From: Spirochaetia bacterium
Lineage (GTDB): Bacteria; Spirochaetota; Spirochaetia; DSM-27196; Salinispiraceae
Length of the DNA: 64,000 nt
Direction: 5' to 3'
NCBI GenBank assembly: GCA_038204425.1
Contig: JBBRCZ010000006.1
Span: 1 to 64,000 of the forward strand
In this document: piece by piece, positions 2,652 to 58,752 of the stretch
Layout: each line of letters begins with the position of its first letter
Numbering within the stretch: the stretch's first letter is position 1
Translations under genes and position numbers: made by a program
The notes under the pieces: generated by a model
What the model was told of the DNA's origin: nothing
The model's database searches: none
Seen by the model: the letters and a program-made list of their open reading frames with translations, nothing else

Positions 2652-4649
2652 TTGTCGCGTCTCAACTTTAAACTCCAAGCCACCTCTTCGGGCAGCGCAG
2701 CGCGGGCTGCTTCTTTTACTGCACTTCATGGCGAAGTGCAGACGCCTATCTTTATGCCAGTGGGCACACAAGCGACAGTCAAAGGCCTGGATACTGCCAC
2801 GCTCGAACGAGTAGGTTCTCGCGTCCTACTGGCAAATACGTATCACCTCCTGCTCAGACCTGGCCCCGAGGTTTTTGAGGCGGCTGGTGGCATCAACAAG
2901 TTTATGGATTGGCCACGGCCTGTCTTGACTGACTCAGGCGGCTTTCAGATTTTTTCACTGCCGCGCTCACGCCAGATGAGCGAGGATGGTGCTGCGTTCA
3001 AAAGTTATGTCGATGGTAGAGCCTACTTGCTTTCTCCGGAATCAAGCATTGCTATGCAGCGTTCGATCGGCTCTGACATTATGATGGTACTCGACCAATG
3101 TATTCCGGCCAGCTCAAGCTACGAACAGGCCAAAGCCGCCATGGAGCTTACTCATCGTTGGGCAGGCCGTAGCTTAGTGGCCCGAGGTGATTCGCCACAA
3201 GCTATGTTTGGCATTGTTCAGGGAGCTTGCTATCCTGACTTACGCCGCCAAAGTGCTAAATTTCTGAGTCAGGCCGGCTTTGACGGTCTGGCAATAGGTG
3301 GTTTGGCTGTGGGCGAGAGTCGCGCCCAACGTCAGGACTTTACCGAACTGGTGGCTGCCATGCTGCCTGTTGACTTGCCACGCTATCTGATGGGTGTCGG
3401 TACTCCGCTCGATATTTTAGAAGCCGTCCATCGTGGTGTTGATATGTTTGACTGCATTATGCCCGTCGCCTTGGCTCAGCACGGTACGGCCTTTACCTCA
3501 CAAGGAAAGTTTCAGGTGCGACGTAGCGTCTATAAATTTGACCAAGGCAGCTTAGACCCAGAGTGCGCCTGTACAGCTTGCACCCGCCATTCGATTTCGT
3601 ACTTGCATCACTTGCAAAAGACAGGCGAAAATCTTGGCTGGCAATTGCTTGCTGAGCACAATTTGCAGTTCTACCATGGTTTAATGACCCAAATTCGCCA
3701 ACATATACTTGCCGGAAGCTTTGAATCTTTTTACAAGCTCAAACGTCAGCAGTTGGATAGCGATGACCAGGTGCATCCTGCCCAGCCAGGCAAGCAACGT
3801 AAGCCCAAGGCTCTACGTCAGAGTCAATTGGGAAACTATCAAGTCAATGTTTCGCCAGCTGGATTTTGTAGTATTCAACAGCGTAGCTCCGGCGAAATTA
3901 TGCATTCGGTTTCCGACCCAATGCTTGAGGCCCAGGCCTTATACGTTGATCAGATCCAACTTGGTGCGCGCCTCACTGAGCATCGACATAAGCCGCTGGT
4001 TATCTGGGATCTGGGCCTTGGCGCTGCCACCAACGCGATGGCTGCAATTAAGTGTGCACAAGACTGGCGAGCGCCTCTCAGGCTGATAAGCTTTGAAAAT
4101 GACCTCGACGCGCTTAGGTTGGCAGTCAACAATGCAGGTCGATTTTTGCACCTTCAACACCCTGCTTCTTCTCATTTGCTGCGCCATGGTCGCTGGACAA
4201 GCGACGATGGCCACATTGAATGGCTGCTCTTGGAAGGTGATGCCATGACGCGCATTGCTGATGCTGAATGTGCAGACGTCGTTTACTATGACCCTTTTTC
4301 TCCCAGCAGCGACACAAGCTTGTGGACAATTGACTGTTTTGCCAAGCTTAAAGCGCGCCTCAACCAGAATGGTCTTGTGCTAACTTACAGCAATTCTACA
4401 GCGGTCAGGGTGGCAATGCTTGCAGCTGGTTTTTTTGTCGCTGCCGGGATAGCTACGGGGCCAAAGGCAAACACCAGCATTGCATTTCTCAATCATGCTA
4501 GTCTGCCAGCGTCGGCGCAGATCTTGGGAAGCGCTTGGCTTGCAAGCTGGGAAAAGAGTCAAGCTAAACTGCCGTATGGCATCGCGTCAGAACAAGATGC
4601 TTGGCTTTTTGAGACCATACGGCGACACGCTCAGTGGCAGCTTTCCTAA
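2652..4649 (+). CDS. tgt: tRNA-guanine(34) transglycosylase fused to a C-terminal MnmC/MnmD-like SAM-dependent methyltransferase
   Basis: N-terminal ~370 aa: TPIFMPVGT, ANTYHL, DSGGFQ, LDQC, GGLAVGE, RYLMGVG, DMFDC, Zn site CACTAC. C-terminal ~280 aa: GEIMHS, DLGLGAATNA, SFE, YYDPFSP..LWT, as in the MnmC methyltransferase domain. Confidence 0.9.
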   Translation: MSRLNFKLQATSSGSAARAASFTALHGEVQTPIFMPVGTQATVKGLDTATLERVGSRVLLANTYHLLLRPGPEVFEAAGGINKFMDWPRPVLTDSGGFQIFSLPRSRQMSEDGAAFKSYVDGRAYLLSPESSIAMQRSIGSDIMMVLDQCIPASSSYEQAKAAMELTHRWAGRSLVARGDSPQAMFGIVQGACYPDLRRQSAKFLSQAGFDGLAIGGLAVGESRAQRQDFTELVAAMLPVDLPRYLMGVGTPLDILEAVHRGVDMFDCIMPVALAQHGTAFTSQGKFQVRRSVYKFDQGSLDPECACTACTRHSISYLHHLQKTGENLGWQLLAEHNLQFYHGLMTQIRQHILAGSFESFYKLKRQQLDSDDQVHPAQPGKQRKPKALRQSQLGNYQVNVSPAGFCSIQQRSSGEIMHSVSDPMLEAQALYVDQIQLGARLTEHRHKPLVIWDLGLGAATNAMAAIKCAQDWRAPLRLISFENDLDALRLAVNNAGRFLHLQHPASSHLLRHGRWTSDDGHIEWLLLEGDAMTRIADAECADVVYYDPFSPSSDTSLWTIDCFAKLKARLNQNGLVLTYSNSTAVRVAMLAAGFFVAAGIATGPKANTSIAFLNHASLPASAQILGSAWLASWEKSQAKLPYGIASEQDAWLFETIRRHAQWQLS

Positions 4650-4769: not shown

Positions 4770-7700
4770 ATGAAACGACCTATTAAATATAGCTTGCAAG
4801 CATTGCTTGTAGTGATGTCCCTGTTTGTCTTGACTTCGCAGAGTGTAGCAGAACATCGAGAGCGTACTCTCGTGCGCCGCGTCCCACCCATAATGACTGA
4901 CGAATCAGGTAATAGCGCTCGCCAATTGGATTTGGCGACATTTTTGCTAGATGTCAAGGTGATGGGCGTGCTGGCACGAACAACAATGACCATGACCTTC
5001 TACAATCCTGGATCGCGCGCGGTAGCAGGAAATCTTTATGTTCCATTGCCAGTTGATGCTACCATTTCTGGCTACGCATTGGACGTCAATGGCGTTATGG
5101 TTGACGGCGTTCCCGTTGAACGAGACACTGCTCGTCAAGTTTACCAAACCGTAGTGGCTCGCGGCATTGACCCTGGCTTGGTGGAGTGGACACGTGGCAA
5201 TGTGTTTAAAACACGGGTCTTCCCGGTTCCAGCAAAGGGTAGTCGTACGGTTAGTCTTAGTTACCTGAGCACTGTCGTCACTGCTGTCGCGACTAGCGAT
5301 AGTCCAGCCAAAAAGCCGCGTTTGATCATTCCATTTGACTTCAAAAAGCCGATAGCAGATTTTAAACTTAGTCTTGAGGTTGTCAAACCTATGGTCAAAC
5401 CCTTGGTTATTTCAGCTTCGTGGAACAAACTAGAGTTCCTTGCTTGGCGCGACGGATTTCGCAGCGAGTTTAGCGCCAAAAACTTTACACCCGATAGCGA
5501 TTGCGAAATCGAACTACCAACAGTCGACGAGCGAAGCGTGCTTTTGGAGAAGAACAATCAAGCAGAAGTAAACGGTGGCAAAGGGGCTTGGTTCTTGTGG
5601 ACCAGCCCACGTGCAGCTTTGGGTCAGTCGCTAGGCATATCGGCCCAACCTAGTCCAGCAAAAGAGCTTAGTCTGTATTGGGATGCGAGCCTAAGTCGCC
5701 AGAACGCTCGCCACGATCTAATAATCAAAACGCTAGCTATTTGGCTTGTAGAGCAAGCAAAAACGCCAGCCAGTTCAGTAGAAAAAGTGCACCTTACCGT
5801 TTTTCGCGAAAGCGCAGAAGCGACGCGTAGCTACCCGGTAAACAGGGGCCTATCGCCTGATCTGCTGCGCGATCTTGCTGCCCTTAGCTACGATGGTGGT
5901 ACCCGAAGTGGCTATTTGCCAAGTCCTCCGAAAGCAAGTCAGATGGTGATTCTGGTCTCTGATGGTTTTTACACTATTGGGCAAAAAGCATTTCCGGACT
6001 TTTCTCAGCCTGTCTATTGTCTCGCCAGCGAGGCACGGTTAGACAGCTCACGTCTACAGAGTATCGCCAATGCCAACGGCGGCAGTCTAGTAATTGTCAA
6101 AGACCCTTTGGAAGCAGCCAAGCAGCTCGGGCGAGCGAGTTTTAGGCTCATTTCTGCCACGGTAAGTGAGGGCAAAGTGAGCGCAATAGAGTCAATTGCT
6201 GATTCAAGCAATGACTTGAGCGGCGTCACCGGTCTGCTAGAAAGCCAAACTGCAAAACTGAGCTTGAGCTATGGCTTTGGCACTGTGGTGAGCAAAAAAA
6301 TTGAGCTAGAGCTAAGGCTCGACCAAGCAGTTGACGCCTATGTTGACGGGGGAGCCTACCAGGATGTTCGTGGCAGTCTTGGGATTTTTTGGGCTCAAAA
6401 CAAACTTTTGCGCTTAATGGCTGGCTCAGATTCTCAGACGGAGGCTCGCAAGGCAGATATGAGAGAGCTTGGTCTGCAGTGGAACCTCGTAAGCCCAGGC
6501 ACCAGTTTGCTGGTGTTGGAAAGCCTCGCCCAGTACCTCGAGTTTAAGATAGCACCACCGCTAAGCTTGGCCGCCATGCGAAGCGAATACTTCCAAGCGA
6601 TGGAAGACCAGAGCAAAGAAAAACGAGTGACAAGCGAAGCCCATCAAGACCAGGTTTTTGCTTGGTGGCAAGAAAGGCTCACGTGGCACAAAACCAAATT
6701 TGACTATCCAGCAAATTATCGGGCTGCGCAGATCAACAAAAAGTCGGCAGAATCGGGAGCCGCTGACGTCATGCATAGTCCCGCTTCCGGTCTCAGCCAG
6801 CAAACGCAAGATATTGCTGCCGAACGCTCAGTTGCGGGCCAGCCAACAAAGGGAGCAGCTGAAGAGTCAGGCCCAGCGGTCAGCATTCAAGCTTGGCAGC
6901 CTGATACTCCTTACTTGCGCTCCTTGCTCAAGTTGGTAGGCGAGGACTCAGATTTTGCTACTGGTTCTGACAACAAAGCTAAACCACGGGCCCTTACACC
7001 GGTCTTGGCTCAAAAGGCCTATCAACACTATCTCGACCTGCGAAAGTCTTACCTTACGTCGCCAAGTTTTTTCTTTGATGTTGGAGACTTCTTTGAAGCT
7101 CGGGCAGCATCTTCATATGCAATAAGAATTTGGTCAGTCTTGACAGAGATGGATCTTGAGGCGCCGGGACTACTGCGCATTGTCGCCTATCGATTGACTC
7201 AAACGGGTCAGCACCAACTTGCTCGTGAAATCTTTGAGCAAGTTTTGGCAATGCGGCCTGAAGAACCACAGTCTTGGCGAGACTTGGCCTTGGTCTTAGA
7301 TGCGCTCAAGCAACATGAGCGTGCAGTGGATTTGTTGTGGCATGTCGTGAGTAACGAGTGGTCTATGACGCCGCAGATAGAAGTCATCTGTTTGATGGAA
7401 ATGAATGCCGCACTAGTAAGGGCTAAAGCCGCTGGCCAAAAACATAGCGCTACTATTCCTGCTCGTTTTGTCCAAGCGCTCGATACTGACATACGCATAG
7501 TTTTGACCTGGGATACCAATCTCTCGGACATGGACCTGTGGGTAATTGAGCCATCAGGCGAGAAGGCGTTCTATGGAAACCAAAGAACCCATATTGGTGG
7601 CTTGGTGAGTCAAGACATAACCACTGGCTATGGTCCAGAAGAGTACCTTCTTAAAAAAGGAATGCGAGGCGACTACACTGTTATGGTTAACTACTATGGA

Positions 7701-7847
7701 AACCAAAATCCAGAAGTCAGCGGTACCGTAACTCTACAGGCCGAGATAATCACCAACTTCGCAAGACCCAATGAAAAGCGACAAGCCCTGACACTAAGCT
7801 TACAGGGCGACGGCAGTTCTTATACTGTTGGGAAGGTTGCTTGGTAG
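4770..7847 (+). CDS. Secreted protein with VIT domain, vWA-like region, TPR and C-terminal DUF2135/YfaP-like domain
   Basis: Signal peptide; VIT-like ARTTMTMTFYNP..PLP..ISGYALD..DPGLVE; WDASLSR; TPR-like RPEEPQSWRDLA; C-terminal IVLTWD..DMDLWVIEPSGE..GYGPEEY; RBS AAGGAG. Confidence 0.8.
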   Translation: MKRPIKYSLQALLVVMSLFVLTSQSVAEHRERTLVRRVPPIMTDESGNSARQLDLATFLLDVKVMGVLARTTMTMTFYNPGSRAVAGNLYVPLPVDATISGYALDVNGVMVDGVPVERDTARQVYQTVVARGIDPGLVEWTRGNVFKTRVFPVPAKGSRTVSLSYLSTVVTAVATSDSPAKKPRLIIPFDFKKPIADFKLSLEVVKPMVKPLVISASWNKLEFLAWRDGFRSEFSAKNFTPDSDCEIELPTVDERSVLLEKNNQAEVNGGKGAWFLWTSPRAALGQSLGISAQPSPAKELSLYWDASLSRQNARHDLIIKTLAIWLVEQAKTPASSVEKVHLTVFRESAEATRSYPVNRGLSPDLLRDLAALSYDGGTRSGYLPSPPKASQMVILVSDGFYTIGQKAFPDFSQPVYCLASEARLDSSRLQSIANANGGSLVIVKDPLEAAKQLGRASFRLISATVSEGKVSAIESIADSSNDLSGVTGLLESQTAKLSLSYGFGTVVSKKIELELRLDQAVDAYVDGGAYQDVRGSLGIFWAQNKLLRLMAGSDSQTEARKADMRELGLQWNLVSPGTSLLVLESLAQYLEFKIAPPLSLAAMRSEYFQAMEDQSKEKRVTSEAHQDQVFAWWQERLTWHKTKFDYPANYRAAQINKKSAESGAADVMHSPASGLSQQTQDIAAERSVAGQPTKGAAEESGPAVSIQAWQPDTPYLRSLLKLVGEDSDFATGSDNKAKPRALTPVLAQKAYQHYLDLRKSYLTSPSFFFDVGDFFEARAASSYAIRIWSVLTEMDLEAPGLLRIVAYRLTQTGQHQLAREIFEQVLAMRPEEPQSWRDLALVLDALKQHERAVDLLWHVVSNEWSMTPQIEVICLMEMNAALVRAKAAGQKHSATIPARFVQALDTDIRIVLTWDTNLSDMDLWVIEPSGEKAFYGNQRTHIGGLVSQDITTGYGPEEYLLKKGMRGDYTVMVNYYGNQNPEVSGTVTLQAEIITNFARPNEKRQALTLSLQGDGSSYTVGKVAW

Positions 7848-7900: not shown

Positions 7901-8959
7901 ATGGAACAAATGGCAACGACAGACTTCAAAGACAGCAACCTAACATTAAATCGTCGTATGCCTGCCGAGTGGGAGCCGCGCGAACGAAGCCTAATGGCTT
8001 GGCCAGTTCGCGCGGAAGCTTGGCTCGATGGCCTAGACAGTGCCATTGTTGCTTATGTCGAAGTAGCCAACCATATTGCGTCCTGTCAGCCGCTGACCAT
8101 GGTCGTCAAACCCTCAGAGCTTGCCAAAGCAAAGAAATTGTTGAGTTCTTCTGTTGAACTCTTGCCAATCCATCATGACGACTCGTGGATCAGAGACAAT
8201 GGTCCCACCATCATCTACAACAACGATAGGCGTGTTGGGATAAGCTGGCGATTTAACGCATGGGGCAACAAATACAAGCCTTTTGATGCAGATAATCAAG
8301 TTGCACGACGGGTTTTGGATCAACTGCATATCGATGTTGAGTTTTCGCCACTAGTGATGGAAGGTGGCAGTCTGCACGTAGATGGTCAGGGTACCCTTTT
8401 GACGAGCGAGCAGTGCCTTTTGGCAGCCAATCGCAATCCCGATCTGTCTAAGGCAAATCTCGAACGACTACTTGGCCTCTACCTCGGTGTAAAAAAAGTG
8501 ATTTGGTTGGGGCAGGGTCTGGACGGAGATGAGACCGACGGTCATATAGATAACATTGCATGTTTTACTAAACCGGGCCGAGTGATTTGGCAAAGCTGTG
8601 ACGACAAAAACGATCCCAACTATCAAACGACGCTCTATAATCGCCAAGTCCTGAGTGAGGCCTTTGACGCAAGTGGTCGTAAGCTTGAGACCATCGAGAT
8701 TCCTCAAGCAGAATTGACGCTCTACAAGGGGCAAAGGTTGGCACTCAGTTACATAAATTTCTATCCGGTGGCCGATACGCTTATCGTACCTTTTTTTGCC
8801 GGCCATGCCAAAGCAGCAGATGATCGTGCAGGACGAATTCTGTCAGACGCATATCCAGGTTATCGAATAGTGGGTATCGATGGTATGCGCCTTATCAAGG
8901 GTGGTGGAAACGTGCACTGTATAACCCAGCAAGTACCCCAGCGCGGCAAAGGAGAATAG
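7901..8959 (+). CDS. aguA: Agmatine deiminase
   Basis: RMPAEWE, DSWIRDNGP, FNAWG, EGGS, ETDGHID, GGGNVHCITQQ. Confidence 0.95.
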   Translation: MEQMATTDFKDSNLTLNRRMPAEWEPRERSLMAWPVRAEAWLDGLDSAIVAYVEVANHIASCQPLTMVVKPSELAKAKKLLSSSVELLPIHHDDSWIRDNGPTIIYNNDRRVGISWRFNAWGNKYKPFDADNQVARRVLDQLHIDVEFSPLVMEGGSLHVDGQGTLLTSEQCLLAANRNPDLSKANLERLLGLYLGVKKVIWLGQGLDGDETDGHIDNIACFTKPGRVIWQSCDDKNDPNYQTTLYNRQVLSEAFDASGRKLETIEIPQAELTLYKGQRLALSYINFYPVADTLIVPFFAGHAKAADDRAGRILSDAYPGYRIVGIDGMRLIKGGGNVHCITQQVPQRGKGE

Positions 8960-8964
8960 CTTAG

Positions 8965-9864
8965 ATGCGAAAAGTAAAAGTTGCGGCCACACAAATGGCA
9001 GCAAGTTGGAACATTGACGATAATATCTTGCAAGCAGAAAAGATGGTTCGCAAAGCTGCCAGCAAAGGTGCACAAATAATTCTATTACAGGAGCTTTTTG
9101 AAACTCCCTATTTTTGCCAAAAACAAAAACCGGATTTTTTTGCCTTTGCTCACAGCGCCGAAGACAGCAAGACCCTACGTTTATTTACCGCCTTGGCCCG
9201 TGAGTTGCAGGTTGTTTTGCCAATAAGCTTTTTTGAGAAGGCTGGCACAGCCTACTACAATTCTGTCGCAATGATAGATGCCGATGGAAGCATAATGGGC
9301 TTCTATCGAAAGACGCACATCCCTGATGGCCCCGGCTATCAAGAGAAGTACTATTTTAATCCCGGCGACCTTGGTCTCAAGGTTTGGCAGACTCGCTACG
9401 CGCGCATAGGACTTGGCATCTGCTGGGATCAGTGGTTTCCTGAGTTGGCACGTAGTTTGGTTTTGCAGGGGGCCGAACTGTTGTTGTATCCAACTGCGAT
9501 AGGAAGCGAACCTCAGGATGCTGACTTAGACTCAAGAGATCACTGGCAGTTGGTGATGCGCGGACATGCGGGGGCCAATCTTTGCCCAGTCATTGCTTCC
9601 AATCGCATTGGACGAGAAGTAATTGATGATTCTACGATTAGCTTTTATGGATCATCTTTTATGACTGACGAAAAAGGCGGTATGGTGCAAGAAGCGGATC
9701 GACAAAGTGAGACCATACTTGTTCACGAATACAACCTAGACAACATTGAAAAAGCACGCGCAAGTTGGGGAGTCTTTAGAGATAGGCGACCCGATATCTA
9801 TTCCAAACTTCTAACGCTCGATGGTGAGCATCTACATTCAAGTTACCGGGGGACCGCACAATGA
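8965..9864 (+). CDS. aguB: N-carbamoylputrescine amidase
   Basis: Nitrilase triad QELF, YRKTHIPDGPGYQEK, ICWDQWFPE; YPTAIGSEP; FRDRRP; directly follows aguA. Confidence 0.95.
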   Translation: MRKVKVAATQMAASWNIDDNILQAEKMVRKAASKGAQIILLQELFETPYFCQKQKPDFFAFAHSAEDSKTLRLFTALARELQVVLPISFFEKAGTAYYNSVAMIDADGSIMGFYRKTHIPDGPGYQEKYYFNPGDLGLKVWQTRYARIGLGICWDQWFPELARSLVLQGAELLLYPTAIGSEPQDADLDSRDHWQLVMRGHAGANLCPVIASNRIGREVIDDSTISFYGSSFMTDEKGGMVQEADRQSETILVHEYNLDNIEKARASWGVFRDRRPDIYSKLLTLDGEHLHSSYRGTAQ

Positions 9865-11777
9865 AGCAAAAATGGTCAATTAACGACGCGCAAAAGCTTT
9901 ACGGAATAAGCAATTGGGGAGCTGGTTACTTTGGCATCGACGATTTGGGATGTTTGACCGTATCTCCTGATGCCGAGTTCAAACCCGGGGTGCGGATGAC
10001 AGAGATTATAGAAGAGGCTCGCAAGCTTGGTTTGGAAGCACCGTTGCATGTGAGATTCCAAGACATACTGCACCATAGGGTGCAACGCTTAAACGAAGCC
10101 TTTGCAGAAGCTATCAGCGAACATGACTACCAAGCCAGCTATCAAGGCGTCTATCCAATAAAGGTCAACCAACTGCGTGAAGTAGTAGAAGCCTTGCTCG
10201 AGGCAGGCGACCCATACAAGCTTGGCATCGAAGCTGGCAGCAAGCCTGAGCTCTTATTGGCGCTATCACTTCATAAAAACTACCAATCTTTGCTCTTATG
10301 CAATGGCTACAAAGACGAAACCTATATTCGCTATGCCTTGGCTGGCCTTAAGCTAGGCAAAAAGGTGATTATCATCGTCGAAAAACTGGAAGAACTTCCG
10401 GTTATTCTGGAGGTTGCAGCCGAACTAAAGGTTAGGCCAATGATTGGTCTACGCGTTAAGTTGGCTACACGTTCTAGCGGGCAGTGGGCAACCAGTTCTG
10501 GCGACAACGCTAAGTTTGGGCTGTCTTCGGTTGATATTTTACAGGCAATTGAGCTTTTGACCGAACGAGATTTACTGGACACCGTTAAGCTTTTGCACTT
10601 TCACATTGGCAGTCAGATTCCAGAAATTAACGTCATTAGCCGGGCTGTACGCGAGGGTGCGCGCTTTTATGCTAAGCTTGCAGAGCGTGGTTGCACCATC
10701 GAATATGTCGATGTCGGTGGAGGTTTGGGCATAGACTACGATGGTAGCGCTTCCAGTCAAGCATCCAGCGTCAACTACAGTTTGAGAGAGTATGCTTCTG
10801 CCATTATTTGCGGCCTCAAAGAAGTCTGCAACGAAGAAAAAGTGGTTCAGCCTACCGTTATAACAGAAAGCGGCAGGGCCCTAGTGGCCCATCACTCGGT
10901 TTTGGTTATAGAGTCGTTTGGAAAAATTCACAAACAAAACACGCTCAAATCCATGCCAGAACCCGCCAGTCTGCATCGTTTGGTGCAGGACGTTTTAGAC
11001 ATTCGAAAGACCTTGGCCAAAGGTCACCTGGTTGAGGCGTTTCACGATCTCGTTTACTACAAGCAGCAAGCCTTGTCCTTGTTTGACCTTGGTTTTCTTG
11101 ACCTAGAATCACGGGCCGTAATCGACAGTCTCTATTGGGAAATTGGCTCGCAGATAGCAGAGCAATGCAAAAATCTGGAAAAGGTGCCGCACGAAATTAA
11201 GACGTTGCTAGACGAACTTAAAGATCAATATTTGATGAATTTTTCTGTCTTTAGAAGCTTGATAGATTTTTGGGCCTTGGGACAAAACTTCCCTATAGTC
11301 CCACTGGATCGACTAGAACAAAAACCAGACTGTGAGGCGATCCTCGCTGACATTACCTGTGACTCTGATGGAAAAATAGACCGATTTATCGGTGCGCCGG
11401 TTGGCGAAAAAAACGCTTTGCTTCTGCACAACCTTGACGACAAACCCTACTTTTTGGGTGTTTTTTTGACAGGTGCTTACCAAGACACTTTGGGCGACAT
11501 GCACAATTTATTCGGCAGAATGAACGAAGTGCATATTGTACTTGACCCGGACGAAGAGGGTGGGTGGTACGTTGACCAAGACATAGCTGGAGACAAAGTA
11601 GATGAAATGCTGACCCAAAATGAATACTCAGTGAGTGAGCTAGTTAGGGCCTTTAAGGCCCAAGTTGACCAAGCAATAAAGAGCGATCGAGTGCGACCGT
11701 CTGAAGGTGTGGGCATTCTTAACGACTACGAAAAAGCTATGAGCGGCTATACCTATTTGTCGGTGAGCAAGAAATAG
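9861..11777 (+). CDS. speA: Biosynthetic arginine decarboxylase
   Basis: VYPIKVNQ (PLP lysine), EAGSKPEL, HFHIGSQI, DVGGGLG, DITCDSDG, GAYQ..HNLFG; ATGA overlap with aguB. Confidence 0.95.
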   Translation: MKQKWSINDAQKLYGISNWGAGYFGIDDLGCLTVSPDAEFKPGVRMTEIIEEARKLGLEAPLHVRFQDILHHRVQRLNEAFAEAISEHDYQASYQGVYPIKVNQLREVVEALLEAGDPYKLGIEAGSKPELLLALSLHKNYQSLLLCNGYKDETYIRYALAGLKLGKKVIIIVEKLEELPVILEVAAELKVRPMIGLRVKLATRSSGQWATSSGDNAKFGLSSVDILQAIELLTERDLLDTVKLLHFHIGSQIPEINVISRAVREGARFYAKLAERGCTIEYVDVGGGLGIDYDGSASSQASSVNYSLREYASAIICGLKEVCNEEKVVQPTVITESGRALVAHHSVLVIESFGKIHKQNTLKSMPEPASLHRLVQDVLDIRKTLAKGHLVEAFHDLVYYKQQALSLFDLGFLDLESRAVIDSLYWEIGSQIAEQCKNLEKVPHEIKTLLDELKDQYLMNFSVFRSLIDFWALGQNFPIVPLDRLEQKPDCEAILADITCDSDGKIDRFIGAPVGEKNALLLHNLDDKPYFLGVFLTGAYQDTLGDMHNLFGRMNEVHIVLDPDEEGGWYVDQDIAGDKVDEMLTQNEYSVSELVRAFKAQVDQAIKSDRVRPSEGVGILNDYEKAMSGYTYLSVSKK

Positions 11778-19879: not shown

Positions 19880-22036
19880 ATGCCAAATACAAATACCTTT
19901 AAAGGTCGTATGACCTTACCAGCCGAAAAAGGCATGGACAAAGAACTTGCGCTTCTCATGGAAAAATGGGGCTGCGACGCTGTGCGCGACTCGGATGGCA
20001 CAGAACTACCTGCCAACATCAAAGAATTGGGCATGGATGTCTATTCTACCCTTTGCATGGTGCGAGCAGATAAAGAGTTTGGCCAGAACAATCGCGATGT
20101 CTTGCAACAGAAGTATCTCATGTCGGATCCGGTAACCGCTTTTGAAGACTCCCTGACCATAGAGCTTTTGAAGGGTTACTATGACCAGCAGTTTGAGATT
20201 GATTGTGCTCACCAGCCAGCAAAATGGTGGGAAGTGCGCAATCGTAGCACTGGCGAAGTGCTCAAAAGCAGTGAGTGGGACTTTGATGCCAAAAAAGGCG
20301 CCGTCACCATCGCCAAGGCCCAAAAATATAACGTCTATACCGTGGCTTTTTTGGTCTATCAGGTCTGGGACTCAACTTCAATGTACAACGCACTTACCAA
20401 CGGTTGGTCCGGTGATCATCCCGGTGCTGTTGATCCTTTTCAACCTAAGGCTCGAGAACATCTCAAGGTTTTTTTGCAGAAGTGGCTAGGCGAACACCCA
20501 GCCACCGACATTGTGCGCTTTACTTCAGTGGCCTATCATTTTACCAACATTTTTAGTGATAAGGCTGAGCCACGCTACCGCGATTGGTCGGGCTACACCG
20601 ACATGATCAGCCCCTACATGATCGAAAAATTTGAGAAAGAACGCGGCTATCGATTGAGTCCTGAGGATTTTGTAACAGCTGGCTACCTCAACAGTTGCGA
20701 CCGAGTGCCTAGCAAGCAGTACTTGGATTGGATAGACTTTGTAAACGAGCACTTGGTGGCATTTTGTAAAGAATGGGTAGATATTACGCACCAAGCCAAT
20801 CGCAAGGCGATGTTATTTTTCTGTGACCACTGGATTGGTACCGAGCCCTATGGCAAGCGTTTTGATCAGATTGGGTTTGACTCGCTGGTTAACCCCGTAA
20901 AAAACGCCATCGAGCTGCGCCGTATTGCTGACGTGCCTGGCAACTATCAGCGCGAAGCCCGCCTCTATCCTTACTTCTTCCCCGTTAACCTAGGCAACCA
21001 ACCCAGCTTTGCCCCTGGCGGCAACCCCAAGGCCGAATGTGTTGAATTTTGGATGTTGGTACGTCGAGCGCTTATGCAAAAACTGATAGAACGGATTGGC
21101 TTTGGTGGCTATACCAACTTGGCCGTTCAGTTTCCTGATTTTATTGACTACGTGGCGATTTTGGCTGATGAGTTCCGAGAAATGCACGCTATGAGCCAAG
21201 GTGTGCCAAGCTACAAGGCACCCTTTAAAGTCGGTGTGCTCAACGCTTGGGGCAAGAGCCGTTCGTGGATCACTAAGGAGTTTCACCTTGGCGGCTTGAT
21301 GGAAAGCCTTGGTGGCCTGCCTTTTGAAGTAGAGTTTTTTAACTTTGAAGACATCGAAGCATCAGGTATACCCGCAGGTGTTAAGGTTATTATCAACACG
21401 GGCAACGCAGATACCGCATGGAGTGGCGGACAACATTGGACTCGGGCCAAGGTTACCAGTGCTATCCGCGAGTTTGTTGCCAAGGGTGGTGGCTTTATTG
21501 GCGTCGGCGAACCAAGCGCTCACGATCACGAAGGTAAGTTCTTCCAAATTTCCGACGTCTTGGGAGTCGACAAAGAACGACATATGAGCGTCGGGAGAGT
21601 AAAGACCAAACTGCCAAGCGAAGCAAGTCACTTTATTACCGCCGACGGCGGCTTTGATTTGGGCTTTACCAGCATCGAAATTTTTGCCGATTTTCCCGAG
21701 CAGCTCAAAGTGCTGGTGGCCGCACGGGATGGCATAAAGATAGCCACCAATAATTACCAAAAGGGCCGCAGCGTGTATTTGGCCGGTTATAACTTTAGCT
21801 GGGCCAACGTACGCCTTTTGTACCGAAGTATCTTGTGGGCCGCAGGTCAGGAAGAACTCAGCAAAAAATGGTTTAGCAGTAACTACCACACTGAGGTTTC
21901 GGCCTTTGAAAAAGGCGGGCGCTTTGCGGTTTACAACAACACCAACGATGCCCAAGAGACAGAAGTTTTTAGAGCAGACGGCAAGACAGTAAAAGTAAGT
22001 CTCGCGGGGAACGAATGTAAGTGGTTTGACATTTAG
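19880..22036 (+). CDS. gnpA: GH112 1,3-beta-galactosyl-N-acetylhexosamine phosphorylase (galacto-/lacto-N-biose phosphorylase family)
   Basis: GRMTLP, WGCDAVRDSDGT, MYN..TNGW, VRFT, DHWIGTEP (catalytic Asp), RLYPYFFP, RIGFGGY, VLNAWGK; 718 aa. Confidence 0.9.
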   Translation: MPNTNTFKGRMTLPAEKGMDKELALLMEKWGCDAVRDSDGTELPANIKELGMDVYSTLCMVRADKEFGQNNRDVLQQKYLMSDPVTAFEDSLTIELLKGYYDQQFEIDCAHQPAKWWEVRNRSTGEVLKSSEWDFDAKKGAVTIAKAQKYNVYTVAFLVYQVWDSTSMYNALTNGWSGDHPGAVDPFQPKAREHLKVFLQKWLGEHPATDIVRFTSVAYHFTNIFSDKAEPRYRDWSGYTDMISPYMIEKFEKERGYRLSPEDFVTAGYLNSCDRVPSKQYLDWIDFVNEHLVAFCKEWVDITHQANRKAMLFFCDHWIGTEPYGKRFDQIGFDSLVNPVKNAIELRRIADVPGNYQREARLYPYFFPVNLGNQPSFAPGGNPKAECVEFWMLVRRALMQKLIERIGFGGYTNLAVQFPDFIDYVAILADEFREMHAMSQGVPSYKAPFKVGVLNAWGKSRSWITKEFHLGGLMESLGGLPFEVEFFNFEDIEASGIPAGVKVIINTGNADTAWSGGQHWTRAKVTSAIREFVAKGGGFIGVGEPSAHDHEGKFFQISDVLGVDKERHMSVGRVKTKLPSEASHFITADGGFDLGFTSIEIFADFPEQLKVLVAARDGIKIATNNYQKGRSVYLAGYNFSWANVRLLYRSILWAAGQEELSKKWFSSNYHTEVSAFEKGGRFAVYNNTNDAQETEVFRADGKTVKVSLAGNECKWFDI

Positions 22037-22077
22037 AACTTGAGGCCATGCGCCGTATTATCTTAGGAGCAAAATTT

Positions 22078-24849
22078 ATGGGAACGATCAAATTTGACAA
22101 AGCCGGATTTATCATCAACGGAAAGCGAGAAGTGCTTCATGGTGGTGAGTTCCAGTATTTTCGTATTCTATCCAGTGAGTGGGACGACCGCCTGCGCAAA
22201 ATGAAGCAGTCAGGTGCCAATTTTCTGTCTACGTATATTCCTTGGAGCTGGCACGAGCCGGTCGAAGGTCAGTACGACTGGACCAGCCCGGAACGTGATG
22301 TGCGTCGCTTTTTGGACTTGTGCAAAAAAAACGGTTTGTATGTTGTCATTAAACCCGGTCCCTACATCTGCGCAGAATGGGACTTTGGCGGCTACCCACA
22401 CTGGTTTTACGAAAAAGACGTAGTTTTTCGCACAGGCGAAAAAAACTACATGGCGCTCACTAAAACCTGGTTTAGCGCCTGTGCAGAAGTAATCCGCCCC
22501 TACCTGATCACCAAGGGCGAAGGCCCTATTATTTTGATGCAGGTTGAGAACGAATATGACCACCTCTGCAAGTACCACCCAGAAATCACTGGCAGCAAAG
22601 AAGATGCACGAAAATATGTAACTACCTTGTTGCAATATGGCCGCGACGATGGACTAGATGTGCCAGTCTTTAGCAACGACTGCGAAAGCATCATAGGCAC
22701 CGAAATCATCAACTGTAACACCTACTATCCCAACATTCCATGGTTTACCTGGTGGCGTAACGACTTTTATGAAGAGCAAATGGAAACTAACCTGCGCGAA
22801 CAGCCAGACAAACCTCTCATGGTTCTGGAAGCCCAGGCAGGCTGGTTTAACAAGCACGGCTATCCTATAGTACCCTTTGAACTGCCCTCATTTGAAATGG
22901 CCACCAAATCCATTACTGCTTTTGGTACCAGTCTCATCAATTACTACATGTTTGCCGGTGGTTCTACCTGGCCCTATTGGGGCAGTAAAGGCGACGGCGG
23001 TGGCATTGGCATGACCACAACTTACGACTTTAGCGGCGTTCCTATCCGCGAATGGGGCGAAACTCACGAAGACAAATACGGCTCTTTTAAACTGTGGGCT
23101 TATTTTTTGGCCAGTTATCCGCAGATCGTTACCGAAGCTACGCTCAGCTATGACGCAGTAAAACTAGTCTCGGGTGCCAGCCATCTCAGTGCCCTGTACA
23201 AGGAAAAATCCAGCATCAACGCGGATTTTAAGGACACTTACCAAGGTTTGTTTGCCTTGGCACGCCTAGGAAAAGACTACTCATCGGCCTTAATTCGCAA
23301 CTTAGGTGACGATCAACAATCGCTGACAGCCAAGTTTACATCCACTACCCTGGGCAAGGAAATCACCTTTCCGGCGAGCGGGCCTCTTGATTTAGAGCCC
23401 CATACCGCCACCTTTTTGCCCATAGATTTTACCCTATCAGGTGACCACAAAATTATCTGGTCTGTCAGTGAAGTGGGCTTCAAGAAAGATATTGGCGGCA
23501 GAACCCACGTGATATTGCACGGGCCCAAGGCGCGACCGGGCCAGACTCTGATCGTCAGCAGCCAAGCCCCCAAGCTTTTGGCCGGCGAAGTAAAGCAGGA
23601 AAAAACCAGCGATGGCTGGCTGCTTAGCTATCGTCACGACCAAGAAGCCGCCTTCCAAGTTGGCGAAGTTGTGGTTCTGGTCTACGAAACCTTTGCCGCC
23701 TACAAACTCTGGCAGCAGCCTGACTTCCTTATGCAATCCGACGTATACCACTTGGATCACGTCAAACAAAGCGGCACCACCACCACACTTGGACTACAGA
23801 TTAAAGCTGGCAAAGCACAAAAAACATCGCTGATAGCCAGTAAAAAAATTAAAAAGATCAGTTTGGCTGGCGAGCCAATACCCTTTAAGCCGCTCAAAGG
23901 CATCGACGGCGGCGTTAGTTTTCAACTTGACCAAGCCCCCGTCCAAGCTGCCAAAGCTGAGTGGACAAGTAACTGGAAGTATCAATACGACTCAGCCGAA
24001 AGTTTGTCAGGCTATGACGACACTAGCTGGGGAAGCATTGCAGCCGACAAGCCCTTGGAGCTGGACAAACACTATGAACACGGCTTCTATTGGTACCGCT
24101 GGGCTTTTGACGTGCAGGGCAACGTGGAGAGTCTCTTTCTAGACTTTAAGACCAACAACTACGACCGCTACTTGGTCTACCTCAACGGCGAGCTAATTCT
24201 GACTCATAATCGCTCGTACTGGATCGACATAGGTAAAAAGATCAAACAAGGCAAGAACCATGTTGCGGTCATGTACGTTTACGAGTGGCACACCAAAGCT
24301 CATCCACACGAAGGCCCCATCAAAAAAATCTCAGGCCTCTACTTGCCAGTCTGTGTGCGCGGCGTGATTGACGGTAAAGACCACAAAGAAGAATTTAAGT
24401 CCTACAAGATGCGACCCTTCCTCGGCGGCGACTTGGCCAAGTTCCAATCGCCCGACTTTGATGACTCCAAGTGGCCGCAAGCTGCTCCCAACAAAAAGTA
24501 CATCATCCAAGAGGACTTGGGCATCTTTGCCTGGTTTAGACGTGAGTTTAGCTTTAGTAAAAAAGAAGGCTGGGAAGCGCCACTTTTGCTACGCATCAAA
24601 AAACTCAAAGAGCGAAGCTTGTTTTTTGTAAATGGACACGCCTGTGGACGCAGTGAAAATGTTGGCCCTCAAGTCGACTTTTACATTCCTGCACAATGGC
24701 TCAAAGAACAGAACAACTTTACCATGCTCATCGAAGGCCCCGGCTATGGTGATCGTCACTTGGGTTATAAACCGGCTTGGTTTGAAGAACTGGAGTTTGA
24801 CTTTTATTACAACGCTCGCCATATCGACATAGTGCTCGAGACAGAATAG
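22078..24849 (+). CDS. GH35 beta-galactosidase with C-terminal jelly-roll domains (no signal peptide)
   Basis: GGEFQYFR, TYIPWSWHEP, KPGPYICAEWDFGGYP, QVENEY, EAQAGWF, NYYMFAGG, TTYD, GPQVDFYIP. Start moved to ATG 22078, which follows AGGAG. Confidence 0.9.
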   Translation: MGTIKFDKAGFIINGKREVLHGGEFQYFRILSSEWDDRLRKMKQSGANFLSTYIPWSWHEPVEGQYDWTSPERDVRRFLDLCKKNGLYVVIKPGPYICAEWDFGGYPHWFYEKDVVFRTGEKNYMALTKTWFSACAEVIRPYLITKGEGPIILMQVENEYDHLCKYHPEITGSKEDARKYVTTLLQYGRDDGLDVPVFSNDCESIIGTEIINCNTYYPNIPWFTWWRNDFYEEQMETNLREQPDKPLMVLEAQAGWFNKHGYPIVPFELPSFEMATKSITAFGTSLINYYMFAGGSTWPYWGSKGDGGGIGMTTTYDFSGVPIREWGETHEDKYGSFKLWAYFLASYPQIVTEATLSYDAVKLVSGASHLSALYKEKSSINADFKDTYQGLFALARLGKDYSSALIRNLGDDQQSLTAKFTSTTLGKEITFPASGPLDLEPHTATFLPIDFTLSGDHKIIWSVSEVGFKKDIGGRTHVILHGPKARPGQTLIVSSQAPKLLAGEVKQEKTSDGWLLSYRHDQEAAFQVGEVVVLVYETFAAYKLWQQPDFLMQSDVYHLDHVKQSGTTTTLGLQIKAGKAQKTSLIASKKIKKISLAGEPIPFKPLKGIDGGVSFQLDQAPVQAAKAEWTSNWKYQYDSAESLSGYDDTSWGSIAADKPLELDKHYEHGFYWYRWAFDVQGNVESLFLDFKTNNYDRYLVYLNGELILTHNRSYWIDIGKKIKQGKNHVAVMYVYEWHTKAHPHEGPIKKISGLYLPVCVRGVIDGKDHKEEFKSYKMRPFLGGDLAKFQSPDFDDSKWPQAAPNKKYIIQEDLGIFAWFRREFSFSKKEGWEAPLLLRIKKLKERSLFFVNGHACGRSENVGPQVDFYIPAQWLKEQNNFTMLIEGPGYGDRHLGYKPAWFEELEFDFYYNARHIDIVLETE

Positions 24850-43456: not shown

Positions 43457-44092
43457 CTACACTTGTTTAGGTTTTTTTGCATCTCTATATTTCTGCAAAA
43501 GACGCCTAAAGCTGGCTATCATGTGTTTGCTTATTGCAATGTCGTCGCCAAGAACTTCAAGAGTATTAGCAATCGACTCAATAGTCGACAAGCATTCTCT
43601 GCGCGGTTCTCGACGTAGATTGCCGTAGAGCGAAGGCTGACTTGGCATGACCACCGCTCGATTAAGTTTTAAGAGCCAAGGGTTCCGCCACCACAAAGCC
43701 TTGGCCTGAGCCCAAGTACCATCTATGGCAACAATACCTTGTATCGACGAAACATCTTTGGGCACAAGGTCGCCTAGTTTATCAAAAAAATGAATGGCTG
43801 ATTGCGCCTGACTCTGGACAAGCTGTTCAAACTTGTAAGTGCTCCCTAAAAAAAGAACTAACCATTGCCGCGCATCTGCTTCTGCTCCAAGGGCGTGGCT
43901 TAGCTTGGCCCAAGAAAGGCCGGTAGCCAAAACTGAGTTCTTTAGAATCAAGTGAGAGATAAGCGCCGTTCCAAGCTCTTTGTCTGGTTCTTGAGGATGC
44001 TGAAGGATGAGCACTCTCAAGCGATTGTCAAAGACTTGCAGGTGATCACAAATACAAAGAGAGAGGGGCTTTTGACAACGCTCACACAACAT
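43457..44092 (-). CDS. DTW-domain tRNA-uridine aminocarboxypropyltransferase (TapT-like)
   Basis: CERC...CIC, LQHPQE, IDGTWAQA, LSTIES. Start placed at ATG 44092 behind AAGGA. Confidence 0.85.
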   Translation of the reverse strand: MLCERCQKPLSLCICDHLQVFDNRLRVLILQHPQEPDKELGTALISHLILKNSVLATGLSWAKLSHALGAEADARQWLVLFLGSTYKFEQLVQSQAQSAIHFFDKLGDLVPKDVSSIQGIVAIDGTWAQAKALWWRNPWLLKLNRAVVMPSQPSLYGNLRREPRRECLSTIESIANTLEVLGDDIAISKHMIASFRRLLQKYRDAKKPKQV

Positions 44093-44185
44093 CTTCTTTG
44101 ATTTCCTTTGCACAAAATCTTGGGACAAACTAAGGTTAGGCAGGCAGCTTGTCAAGTGTGGGGCCAAGTGTGGTAGTCTGACCAG

Positions 44186-44900: not shown

Positions 44901-45500
44901 TTGGAACACGAATTAGAACTTGATATTCTCGAACACATTTCTCAAACTGAGCAAAAAGTTAGACAGCGGGACTTGGCCCACATTATTGGCAAGAGTCTCG
45001 GTATGACCAACGCAATCCTGCAGCGTTTGGTTCAAAAAGGCATGCTTAAAGTGGCACAAGCAAATGGCCGGAGTTTGTCGTATGTTGTCACTCCAGATGG
45101 AGTGCGAGAGCTGGCAAGTCGCAGTTACCGTTTTTTTAAACGCACCATAAAAAATGTGGTTTTTTATAAAGATGGCATAGAGAAGGCAGTCAAAAGTTGT
45201 TTGCAAGAGTCAGTGCCCAAAGGCTCTGCTGCGGTAGTCTTACTTGGCCAAAGTGACCTTGATTTTGTGGTGGAGCACGTTGTTCAATCGGCTGGCTTAG
45301 TTTTGTTGAGGCACACGGAGCCTAACGAGCTTGAAACCGTGCCAGGTTTAAAAGTGGTGGCATGTTTGCTAAGTGAGTCGGCATCTGAATCGATGCGTGC
45401 GTTTACAAAGACAAGGACCGCTTCTGTGTGGCATGATGCGCAACTAATAGACTTGTCACAAATTGTTTTGGGCACAACAATGGATCAGGAGAGAAGCTAA
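44901..45500 (+). CDS. Winged-helix MarR-like regulator of the EPS-associated type
   Basis: QRDLA....SLGMTNAIL..LVQKG, YVVTPDG; TAATG overlap with legB. Confidence 0.85.
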   Translation: MEHELELDILEHISQTEQKVRQRDLAHIIGKSLGMTNAILQRLVQKGMLKVAQANGRSLSYVVTPDGVRELASRSYRFFKRTIKNVVFYKDGIEKAVKSCLQESVPKGSAAVVLLGQSDLDFVVEHVVQSAGLVLLRHTEPNELETVPGLKVVACLLSESASESMRAFTKTRTASVWHDAQLIDLSQIVLGTTMDQERS

Positions 45501-46498
45501 TGCAGTTAAGAGGCAAAAAAGTCTTGGTGACCGGAGCCGACGGTTTTATTGGCAGTCACCTGACTGAGGCGCTGTTGGCAGAAGGCGCGCACGTTAGGGC
45601 ATTTGTTTACTACAACAGTTTTAATTCTTGGGGCTGGTTGGATAGCCTACCTGCTGAGGTTTTAAGTACAATCGAAATATTTGCTGGGGATATTCGAGAT
45701 CCAAATGGGGTTAGAAAAGCAATGGATGGCATTGAGATAGTCTTCCATCTGGCGGCTTTAATTGCTATTCCTTTTAGCTATCATTCTCCAGATAGTTACG
45801 TGGACACCAATATAAAAGGAACTCTCAATATCCTGCAGGCAGCTCGTGAGCTCGGGACCAAGAAAATTTTGGTTACTTCTACATCGGAAGTGTATGGCAC
45901 CGCACTCTACGTTCCCATTGACGAAAAACACCCCTTCCAAGGACAGTCTCCCTATTCGGCAACCAAAATTGGGTCTGATCGTATGGCAGAGAGTTTCTAT
46001 CGTAGTTTTGATCTGCCCGTAAGCATCGTGAGACCATTTAATACCTACGGACCTCGTCAATCGGCCCGTGCTGTTATCCCAACCATCATCACTCAGTTGT
46101 TGGCCGGCAAGTCCGAGATCAAGCTTGGCAGCCTTCATCCCACCCGCGACCTGCTTTTTGTAAAAGATACGGCGCGTGGTTTTATTGAGATAGCTAAGTC
46201 CGATAAGACTATCGGGCAAGAAATCAATATCGCCACTCAAGCCGAAATAAGTATAGGTGACTTAGCCAATGAACTGATTGCGCAGATAAATCCCGCTGCC
46301 ACTATAGTGACTGATGATGTGCGACTACGGCCCAACCTTAGTGAAGTAGAACGCTTGCTGGGCTCAAAGGAAAAGATTGAAGCGTTAACGGCTTGGCGGC
46401 CAGAGTTTGACCTCAAGGCTGGTTTGGCAGCTACTATCGCTTGGTTTAGAGATTCAAGCAACTTGGCCCGTTACAAGGCGGATATTTACAATGTATAG
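45500..46498 (+). CDS. legB: NAD-dependent NDP-GlcNAc 4,6-dehydratase
   Basis: TGADGFIGSHL, YNSFNSWGWLD, HLAALIAIPFSY, TSTSEVYG, YSATK, GPRQSARA. Confidence 0.92.
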   Translation: MQLRGKKVLVTGADGFIGSHLTEALLAEGAHVRAFVYYNSFNSWGWLDSLPAEVLSTIEIFAGDIRDPNGVRKAMDGIEIVFHLAALIAIPFSYHSPDSYVDTNIKGTLNILQAARELGTKKILVTSTSEVYGTALYVPIDEKHPFQGQSPYSATKIGSDRMAESFYRSFDLPVSIVRPFNTYGPRQSARAVIPTIITQLLAGKSEIKLGSLHPTRDLLFVKDTARGFIEIAKSDKTIGQEINIATQAEISIGDLANELIAQINPAATIVTDDVRLRPNLSEVERLLGSKEKIEALTAWRPEFDLKAGLAATIAWFRDSSNLARYKADIYNV

Positions 46499-46507
46499 GC
46501 ACTCAAC

Positions 46508-47659: not shown

Positions 47660-48291
47660 AAATTGTTCTTTTGGGCGCTGGTGGGCACGCAAAAAGTTGT
47701 ATTGCTTGTCTTGAAAGCGCTGGCTACCAGATAGCTGGTCTACTAGCTGGGCCTGAGCAGATTGGGCAGCGGTTTATGGGCTACGAGGTTTTGGGTGGCG
47801 ACGAGCAAATTGATTCACTAGCCAAGGCTGGGTATGAGTTTTTGGTAGCCGTTGGCCATATAGAAACCGCATTGGTTCGTCAAAGCTTGTTTGAGCGAGT
47901 TTTAGAGTCTGGCGGCCAGCTTCCGTCAATAATTGCGGCTGATTCCATAGTGCATCGATCAGCAGAGCTTGGTGCTGGAACCTTGATTATGCACAGGGGT
48001 TTTGTGAATGCAGGCGCCAAGCTTGGCAGAAACTGCATCATTAACACAGGCGCGATCGTTGAACATGATGTGACTATCGGCGACCATGTACATGTATCCA
48101 CAGGAGCCATTGTCAACGGCTCGGTTTGCATTGGCGACGGAAGTTTTATTGGCAGCGGTGCCGTGATTAGAAATAATTTGAGTATAGCAAGTCAAGTGGT
48201 GATTGGGGCAGGGGCAGTAGTGGTAAGCAGTATTGTGCTGCCGGGCACCTACGTTGGAAACCCGGCCCGTCGTCTGGAGAGTCTTGGATGA
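47656..48291 (+). CDS. NeuD/PglD-family hexapeptide acetyltransferase (LegH role)
   Basis: GAGGHAK, INTGAIVEHD, hexapeptide repeats, GNPAR. Confidence 0.88.
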   Translation: MKIVLLGAGGHAKSCIACLESAGYQIAGLLAGPEQIGQRFMGYEVLGGDEQIDSLAKAGYEFLVAVGHIETALVRQSLFERVLESGGQLPSIIAADSIVHRSAELGAGTLIMHRGFVNAGAKLGRNCIINTGAIVEHDVTIGDHVHVSTGAIVNGSVCIGDGSFIGSGAVIRNNLSIASQVVIGAGAVVVSSIVLPGTYVGNPARRLESLG

Positions 48292-51526: not shown

Positions 51527-51530
51527 CGGA

Positions 51531-53035: not shown

Positions 53036-53038
53036 AAT

Positions 53039-54262: not shown

Positions 54263-54284
54263 TAAACCGCGGGCCTTTAAATAG

Positions 54285-57391: not shown

Positions 57392-57416
57392 TGCTGATCG
57401 GCTATAGGAGATAATA

Positions 57417-58751: not shown

Positions 58752-58752
58752 A

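Follow-up and report, generated by a model that had tools for sequence, protein, structure and literature searches.

A second Tgt clade joined to an MnmC2-fold methyltransferase: an already catalogued fusion with a sign of changed RNA specificity

The first 64,000 nucleotides of contig JBBRCZ010000006.1 from a Spirochaetia bacterium (assembly GCA_038204425.1; this whole stretch is the window) include one gene whose protein joins a paralogue of the bacterial tRNA-guanine transglycosylase (Tgt) to an S-adenosylmethionine (SAM)-dependent methyltransferase of the MnmC2/MnmD fold. The architecture is real and already catalogued, and the paralogue is uncharacterised, with a sign of changed RNA specificity. 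Bacterial 7-deazaguanine tRNA chemistry is taken to comprise one enzyme, four tRNAs with GUN anticodons and one end product, the canonical Tgt acting on the U33-G34-U35 sequence of tRNA-Asn, tRNA-Asp, tRNA-His and tRNA-Tyr. The fusion belongs to a further Tgt clade, here termed Tgt2, that is conserved and keeps its catalytic residues. Tgt2 occurs in about a quarter of the sampled Bdellovibrionota (86 of 301 genomes) as well as in Verrucomicrobiota, spirochaetes and others, and is annotated as ordinary Tgt though its RNA-reading sites differ. We tentatively favour a reading in which Tgt2 may insert 7-aminomethyl-7-deazaguanine (preQ1) at a guanine beyond, or other than, the ordinary queuosine sites and the methyltransferase may then N-methylate it; the narrower version, in which N-methyl-preQ1 would be placed at a guanine outside the four GUN tRNAs by a Tgt paralogue with a changed anticodon read-out, is rather doubtful.

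The open reading frame (ORF) contains no internal stop, and its N-terminus agrees with the family start MSRLNF. A preliminary description of this DNA, made from the letters alone, had read a single ORF with intact Tgt and methyltransferase motifs, and every motif that it named was located: DSGGFQ (residues 94-99), LDQC (147-150), GGLAVGE (216-222) and the zinc ligands C305/C307/C310/H336 in the first half, and DLGLGAATNA (453-462) and YYDPFSP (545-551) in the second. Pfam agrees, placing TGT at residues 16-367 (E 5e-139) and Methyltransf_30 at residues 517-607 (E 1.5e-14). The protein scores 437.7 bits against the TIGR00430 Tgt model, above the curated cut-off of 306.75, and 13.4 bits against the DpdA model NF041059, missing its cut-off of 200. 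The full-length structure model (predicted template-modelling score 0.57) has a flexible linker between the domains. The 119 best non-self database matches are all full-length, with 55-60% identity over 97-100% of the protein, and 80 GTDB genome loci carry the same fusion or a fusion start, in Verrucomicrobiota, Bdellovibrionota, Spirochaetota, Myxococcota, Binatota, Riflebacteria, Pseudomonadota and others. These homologues and loci rule out an assembly accident or a chance fusion. Within its own phylum the full fusion occurs in 18 genomes of a 301-genome sample and is absent from the nearest relatives in the family and order. The GC content of the gene (0.52) exceeds that of the window (0.46) and of its neighbours (0.47-0.50), a difference too weak for dating a transfer.

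The Tgt half retains the catalytic and pocket residues of its canonical relatives. In the 70 fusions aligned, the catalytic and guanine-pocket residues D94, S95, D148, Q190, G217 and D267 are invariant, as are the preQ1-type residues C150, A219, V220 and E222 (with L218 in the window protein) and the zinc site C305, C307, C310 and H336, arranged as C-x-C-x-x-C...H. D94 and D267 correspond to the catalytic Asp102 and Asp280 of Zymomonas mobilis TGT; the guanine-pocket residues S95, D148, Q190 and G217 correspond to Z. mobilis Ser103, Asp156, Gln203 and Gly230, with M247 also in the pocket, and the preQ1-type residues to Cys158, Leu231/Ala232, Val233 and Glu235. Invariant or nearly so are also the dimer-interface positions, which are echoed by the structure titles of mutants. 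The Tgt-domain model superimposes on Z. mobilis TGT with a template-modelling score, normalised by target, of 0.90-0.95, and identity to canonical Tgt structures is 44-46%. Fold, catalytic aspartates, pockets, zinc site and dimer residues are shared with canonical bacterial Tgt (TIGR00430, PF01702; Z. mobilis 1q2r/1enu, E. coli 10fa, T. maritima 2ash). The catalytic, guanine-pocket and preQ1-type roles of these residues follow passages of PMC5699537, PMC3660597 and PMC6165067. An inactive helper subunit of the QTRT2 kind is ruled out on sequence, both catalytic aspartates being invariant.

Unlike canonical Tgt, Tgt2 is always an extra copy, forms a separate clade and is usually fused to the methyltransferase. 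In a quick, midpoint-rooted IQ-TREE run with 70 fused and 41 stand-alone Tgt domains (the source genome's canonical copy plus 40 from 38 of 50 other fusion genomes), the fused domains make up one side of a branch of length 1.11 with a Shimodaira-Hasegawa-like approximate likelihood ratio support of 100, and phyla are intermingled within it. The two groups also differ at Arg286, Arg289, His127, Tyr161-Pro162 and Asn304 (Z. mobilis numbering), all of which are replaced in Tgt2. Arg286 is found in none of 87 fusions and in 39 of the 41 canonical copies from the same genomes, the other two having Lys; Arg289 is found in 1/87 and 41/41, respectively. Wider sampling gives the same picture: the two arginines are kept in 0/119 and 1/119 database fusions, and in 1/119 and 3/119 of the clade's shorter proteins. 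Among representatives at 50% identity they occur in 1 and 1 of 39 from the clade (5 rows unmatched) as against 79 and 79 of 82 canonical Tgts (6 unmatched), the canonical misses being three mis-anchored matches and one His. We take Arg289 and Arg286 to contact U35 and the nearby backbone in the Z. mobilis TGT-RNA structure; a published statement of these contacts was sought in literature passages and was not found there. The loss of both arginines from the fused Tgt points to a changed RNA target. Similarly, the place of His127 is taken by Tyr in 85/87 fusions and remains His in 37/41 canonical copies, and the place of Asn304 holds Arg in all 70 aligned fusions and mostly Asn (29/41) in the canonical set. 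By an alignment placement made here, the changes at Arg286, Arg289 and His127 fall in insertions 3 and 8, the elements that, according to passages of PMC10164549, read the anticodon loop and confer GUN specificity.

A further change lies beside the groove for the 7-substituent of the base. Tyr161-Pro162 becomes Ser/Ala-Thr in the clade, aligning with Ser164-Thr165 of human QTRT1, so that Tgt2 resembles the eukaryotic enzyme in having Ser-Thr five and six residues past the pocket Asp; the window protein itself has Ala at the Tyr161 place. A small residue there is universal in the fusions (87/87) and occurs in 3/41 canonical copies of the same genomes and in 18/69 diverse canonical Tgts. According to PMC6165067, QTRT1 Ser164 contacts the side ring of queuine, and according to PMC3660597, Val233 blocks productive queuine binding. 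QTRT1 has Val and Gly at 158 and 233, admitting queuine, whereas Tgt2 keeps the equivalents of Cys158 and Val233 in 70/70 fusions.

The other half of the protein has the MnmC2 fold. Its model, with a predicted local distance difference test score (pLDDT) of 96, matches Aquifex MnmC2 best (3vyw; Z 25.6, root-mean-square deviation 2.8, 237 residues aligned), followed by the N-domain of E. coli MnmC (Z 21.4). With MnmC2/MnmD it shares the fold, the SAM-binding motif I GxGxxxN (455-461), the motif II Glu (E482), the motif III Asp (D530), the catalytic DxF (D547-x-F549) and the motif VI Tyr (Y579); W558 is also present. Of the MnmC2 SAM-binding and catalytic residues named in passages of PMC3527978, motif I is kept in 86/87 fusions and DxF is matched in 85/87. 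In a FastTree phylogeny 27 fused and 17 stand-alone relatives form a cluster with modest support (0.82), outside which lie the 16 Aquifex-like MnmD and the 16 E. coli-like MnmC included; MnmL-linked MnmD and MnmC are therefore not part of the cluster. The basic residue, an Arg, that follows the conserved Lys of a G-x-K-R-E motif is lost, extra C-terminal helices bear conserved W-L-x-R-W-x-R-S and H-P-Q-F motifs, and the domain is often additional to a true MnmD in the same genome.

Both textbook pathways are complete without the fusion in the source genome, which is itself 95.6% complete. It has a separate canonical tgt (374 aa, contig C3), queA, a queG (272 bits, cut-off 200), a YhhQ-type queuosine-precursor transporter and all four GUN tRNAs; QueF and a true QueC were not found in it. 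On the uridine side it has mnmG, an MnmL/YtqA-like gene (tblastn E 7e-36) and a stand-alone MnmD that passes the NF033855 cut-off with 160.9 bits. Since separate genes exist for both ordinary jobs, neither job needs the fusion. Its MnmL-like gene starts beside tRNA-Arg(CCG) on contig C10, and, as a separate observation, the Arg tRNAs found on contigs C5, C8 and C10 read GCG, UCG and CCG, an ACG form not being found. The checks for queA, queG, a second tgt and another mnmC or mnmM that the preliminary description had proposed were run, queG in the source genome and the others across 50 of the 80 fusion genomes, picked for longer contigs and spread, plus the source genome (51 in all; the counts are limited by incomplete genomes and by kinship, related genomes being non-independent). 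A second tgt, in a short frame, occurs in 50/50 of the others, in one as frameshifted pieces. queA and mnmG are each present in 48/51 genomes, MnmM in 4/51, and an MnmC/MnmD outside the fusion-type clade in 13/51, two further matches being unclassified. A QueF-like match was found in 42/51, none of them above the cut-off of that long-form model. Among the 18 own-phylum fusion genomes, 16 have a separate PF05430 gene. The idea that the fusion is a genome's sole Tgt and replaces queuosine is ruled out by the canonical tgt, queA and queG beside it.

Tgt2 and the methyltransferase also occur apart. A search that used just the Tgt domain as query brought up 119 new clade members, and in the 301 Bdellovibrionota genomes the methyltransferase type was detected in 104 (thresholds, set by us, of 1e-125 for Tgt2 and 1e-24 for the methyltransferase). 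Both were present in 83 of the 86 Tgt2 genomes, mostly by way of the fusion itself. More telling are the genomes that have unfused or degenerate Tgt2 only: 9 of 12 carry the methyltransferase in trans, as against 20 of 214 in the Tgt2-less background, and 11 of the 12 keep a canonical tgt. Five contig-edge genomes (G431, G507, G533, G635 and G568) were left out of the 12, and G609, a frameshifted fusion, out of the background. Of 15 Tgt2-less genomes tested, the stand-alone form is the sole PF05430 gene in 5 and is accompanied by a second one in 10; of these ten, at least 8 lie beside an MnmL-type gene (one neighbour confirmed by TIGR01212) and 1 is a bifunctional MnmC, so the stand-alone fusion-type methyltransferase is often not the MnmD. 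Individual loci illustrate the range of arrangements. At L285 3992-5563 and L288 3967-5622, and in proteins P0127-P0205, the methyltransferase is truncated with its motifs lost and Tgt2 is intact. A stand-alone duplicate of the methyltransferase half lies 5 kb downstream of an intact fusion at L020 15015-15851, and genomes G550, G565, G571 and G600 have two Tgt2 copies, either fused plus stand-alone or both fused. A stand-alone fusion-type methyltransferase adjoins trhO in one genome (L257 2294-3025), and at L095, L254 and L366 it is divergent from a leuS-like gene, labelled from its N-terminal motif.

What might such a protein do? We infer an activity, an inserted base, an RNA target and a nucleoside common to both halves from the conserved residues and the gene inventories. 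The fusion would be an accessory, horizontally spread, two-step RNA-modifying enzyme. Its Tgt2 half would remove guanine from an RNA loop and insert preQ1 or a close derivative. As the RNA read-out of Tgt2 seems to have been re-cut, this half probably serves something other than just the U33-G34-U35 set of canonical Tgt; the likeliest candidates would be G34 of other tRNAs, or a subset or wider set of anticodon loops. The MnmC2-fold half would use SAM to methylate the nitrogen of the free aminomethyl group, in the way that MnmC2 acts on 5-aminomethyluridine (nm5U). The resulting N-methyl-preQ1 would be final, with no further conversion to queuosine. Alternatively, the free base may be methylated before insertion. 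The same chemistry has a precedent in phage DNA, where, according to PMC10516641, the transglycosylase DpdA2 inserts preQ1 and its partner DpdM methylates the amine to give N-methyl-preQ1. That system differs in its DNA target, in a DpdA far more divergent from Tgt, and in DpdM, a metal-binding DUF3109 protein unrelated to the Rossmann MnmC2 fold. If the fusion makes N-methyl-preQ1 or acts on other anticodons, tRNA would gain a modification and the preQ1 pathway a branch that are both new; the fusion would also provide a natural Tgt with altered RNA specificity, usable for RNA labelling. On the narrower version, a widespread bacterial pathway would write N-methyl-preQ1, undescribed in RNA, and non-GUN tRNAs would for the first time be seen to carry a 7-deazaguanine at their wobble position.

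The preliminary description had offered two possibilities, a simple link between two wobble pathways or methylation of freshly inserted preQ1 to give an end product other than queuosine. The first is weakened by the source genome's separate genes for both ordinary jobs and is kept as a rival. In the second, the chemistry draws support from the intact preQ1-type pocket and MnmC2 catalytic set, and some of the evidence uncouples the two domains; as a replacement for queuosine on the GUN tRNAs it is not the likeliest outcome, given the canonical tgt in 50/50 genomes, queA in 48/51 and the absence of both arginines.

Several observations weigh against the reading we favour. Position 286 varies within the clade (Q, A, S, E), as does 289 (Q, K, H, W), which could reflect a relaxed rather than a new specificity. 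In 59/87 fusions the residue that follows is Arg, which might compensate for the lost arginines. Retention of the canonical tgt is expected of a near-universal core gene anyway. The support for the methyltransferase clade is modest, and the domain's score of 77.7 bits against the NF033855 MnmC2 model, below the cut-off of 136, says little because true MnmL-adjacent MnmD score only about 85 bits themselves (84.6 and 86). In 32/51 fusion genomes the searches turned up no MnmD, MnmC or MnmM besides the fusion, which fits an MnmD role there. Of the 119 additional Tgt2 proteins, 83 are short forms in which the beginning of the methyltransferase is missing; several of these lie on long contigs, and some may have been cut. 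A truncated methyltransferase without its catalytic motif is carried by 13 Tgt2 proteins. In 3 of the 12 genomes with unfused or degenerate Tgt2, all three incomplete, no methyltransferase was found in trans. Conversely, 20 genomes of Bdellovibrionota and one of a spirochaete have the methyltransferase by itself, with only a canonical tgt found, and it is these genomes that argue most strongly against an obligate pairing with Tgt2. Related genomes, moreover, are non-independent in all of the counts given. Lastly, no conserved gene neighbourhood that would name the substrate was found across the fusion loci.

In one rival explanation the two halves have separate jobs: Tgt2 would place preQ1 or queuosine at new or partial sites, the methyltransferase would be an MnmD isoenzyme on 5-aminomethyl-(2-thio)uridine (nm5(s2)U) at position 34, perhaps on a subset of tRNAs, and fusion would merely share expression or tRNA binding. 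The closest structure, Aquifex MnmC2, is a proven nm5U methylase; the domain is the only MnmD-like gene found in 32/51 fusion genomes, mnmG being present in 48/51; each half occurs without the other, and the stand-alone methyltransferase is the sole PF05430 gene in 5/15 Tgt2-less genomes. We nevertheless consider this explanation unlikely, since the fusion coexists with a separate MnmC/MnmD in 13/51 genomes, with MnmM in 4/51 and with a further PF05430 gene in 16/18 own-phylum carriers, and since in 10/15 Tgt2-less genomes the stand-alone form is joined by another PF05430 gene, which adjoins an MnmL-type gene in at least 8 and is a bifunctional MnmC in 1. The loss of the basic residue after the G-x-K-R-E Lys also speaks against it. 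Moreover, MnmL was not found in any of the 5 Opitutaceae-type carriers tested, so nm5U would arise there only by the ammonium route. Improbable in our estimate is a third arrangement that leaves the GUN tRNAs as the target and changes the base instead. Here a Tgt2 with a widened groove would insert queuine or pre-methylated preQ1, or the methyltransferase would act on canonically placed preQ1 or queuosine, tuning or capping queuosine formation. The QTRT1-like Ser-Thr at 161-162, the mostly kept Lys52 and Thr/Ser285 hydroxyl of the fusions, the stand-alone methyltransferases with canonical tgt only, and a source genome that salvages its precursor (transporter present, QueC and QueF not found) are all in keeping with it. 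However, Val233, which blocks productive queuine binding, is kept together with Cys158 in 70/70 fusions, queA is kept in 48/51, and a small residue at 161 is seen in 18/69 diverse canonical Tgts as well; nor would an unchanged RNA target explain the loss of both arginines.

The plainest account, that the fusion is a spare ordinary Tgt with a spare ordinary MnmD doing textbook jobs, has the TIGR00430 score, the database label and the full set of catalytic residues on its side. It is very improbable in view of a canonical copy that is missing from none of the 50 genomes, the long separate stem with conserved clade-specific changes at RNA-contact sites, and the high conservation over at least eight phyla after transfer. 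Least probable of all is a target other than tRNA, be it rRNA, mRNA, tmRNA or, as for DpdA, DNA. Earlier second tgt copies proved to be DNA-modifying (in passages of PMC5699537), bacterial Tgt accepts mRNA and uracil-DNA loops (likewise of PMC4425180), and the distribution is patchy and transferred. Against such targets stand the 44-46% identity to canonical Tgt structures, the mere 13.4 bits on the DpdA model and the kept dimer-interface residues. The loci likewise lack DNA-metabolism or defence neighbours and PADLOC matches, and the protein was not found in viral contigs or plasmids with this query. In addition, those few neighbouring genes that recur encode tRNA enzymes (4 DTW and 2 TruA among the 143 scanned), and the partner fold is that of a tRNA methyltransferase.

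The fusion itself has been noticed before, as the preliminary description had suspected. In one sentence of their main text, Jaroch et al. (bioRxiv 10.1101/2023.12.21.572861) name TGT as a fusion partner of MnmC2, without a function; the domain architecture is the same, and their main text is silent on paralogy and on altered residues. Databases label the homologues as Tgt, and the tgt and MnmC passages of a 2026 review (PMC13602947) do not mention the fusion. A search of the literature outside subscription papers found neither a function assigned to the fusion nor a mention of N-methyl-preQ1 in RNA.

Coordinates of the features within the window are collected below.

Table. The fusion gene and its parts, in window coordinates
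Feature	Position	Strand	Basis
Tgt-paralogue/methyltransferase fusion ORF, 665 aa, TTG start	2652..4649	+	ORF reading, Pfam, profile and homologue matches
AGGA resembling a Shine-Dalgarno site, 9 bases upstream of the TTG codon	2639..2642	+	read from sequence
Tgt domain, residues 1-370	2652..3761	+	Pfam, TIGR00430, structure model
Basic, proline-rich linker; pLDDT <50 at residues 378-388	3762..3827	+	structure model
MnmC2/MnmD-fold SAM methyltransferase, residues 393-665	3828..4646	+	motifs, structure model
A273 and Q276 at the Z. mobilis Arg286/Arg289 places (insertion 8), clade signature	3468..3479	+	alignment
Y119 at the Z. mobilis His127 place (insertion 3)	3006..3008	+	alignment
A153-S154 in place of Z. 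mobilis Tyr161-Pro162; Ser-Thr in the family consensus	3108..3113	+	alignment
R291 (Asn304 place), invariant in fusions	3522..3524	+	alignment

An Rfam search of the window gave no match, and counts of promoters and terminators equalled those of shuffled sequence. A Pfam scan covered 143 of the 161 nearest neighbours at the fusion loci (17 long and 1 short protein were left out). Four loci (L018, L046, L279 and L283) have a DTW tRNA-modification gene immediately upstream of Tgt2, and the two TruA neighbours come from related loci. The same 143 neighbours include no DNA-modification, DNA-metabolism or defence gene, and no recurring tRNA gene was found beside the fusion. The idea of a defence system is rejected, PADLOC having given no match. 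Among viral contigs four loci matched, all of them canonical Tgt, and among plasmid records none reached 80% coverage of the query. The window has a DTW-domain tRNA aminocarboxypropyltransferase gene of its own at 43457-44167 (-), and the source genome a second one on contig C12. At L004, a gene with a DPPY DNA-methylase motif, from which its label derives, follows a stand-alone mnmD on the same strand (470-1435, -); MnmC2-YhdJ methylase fusions are listed by Jaroch et al. (bioRxiv 10.1101/2023.12.21.572861).

In the window, the fusion gene is flanked by the B-subunit gene of a type II topoisomerase, which is divergent, and by a VIT-domain gene; the latter, directly downstream at 4770-7847 (+), encodes a 1025-aa protein with VIT, TPR and DUF2135 domains. 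Further along the same strand, consecutive genes for agmatine deiminase, a carbon-nitrogen hydrolase and arginine decarboxylase (7901-11777) make up a putrescine route, a lacto-N-biose phosphorylase occurs with a GH35 beta-galactosidase (19880-24849), and a long nucleotide-sugar and O-antigen-ligase cluster occupies 45500-63060.

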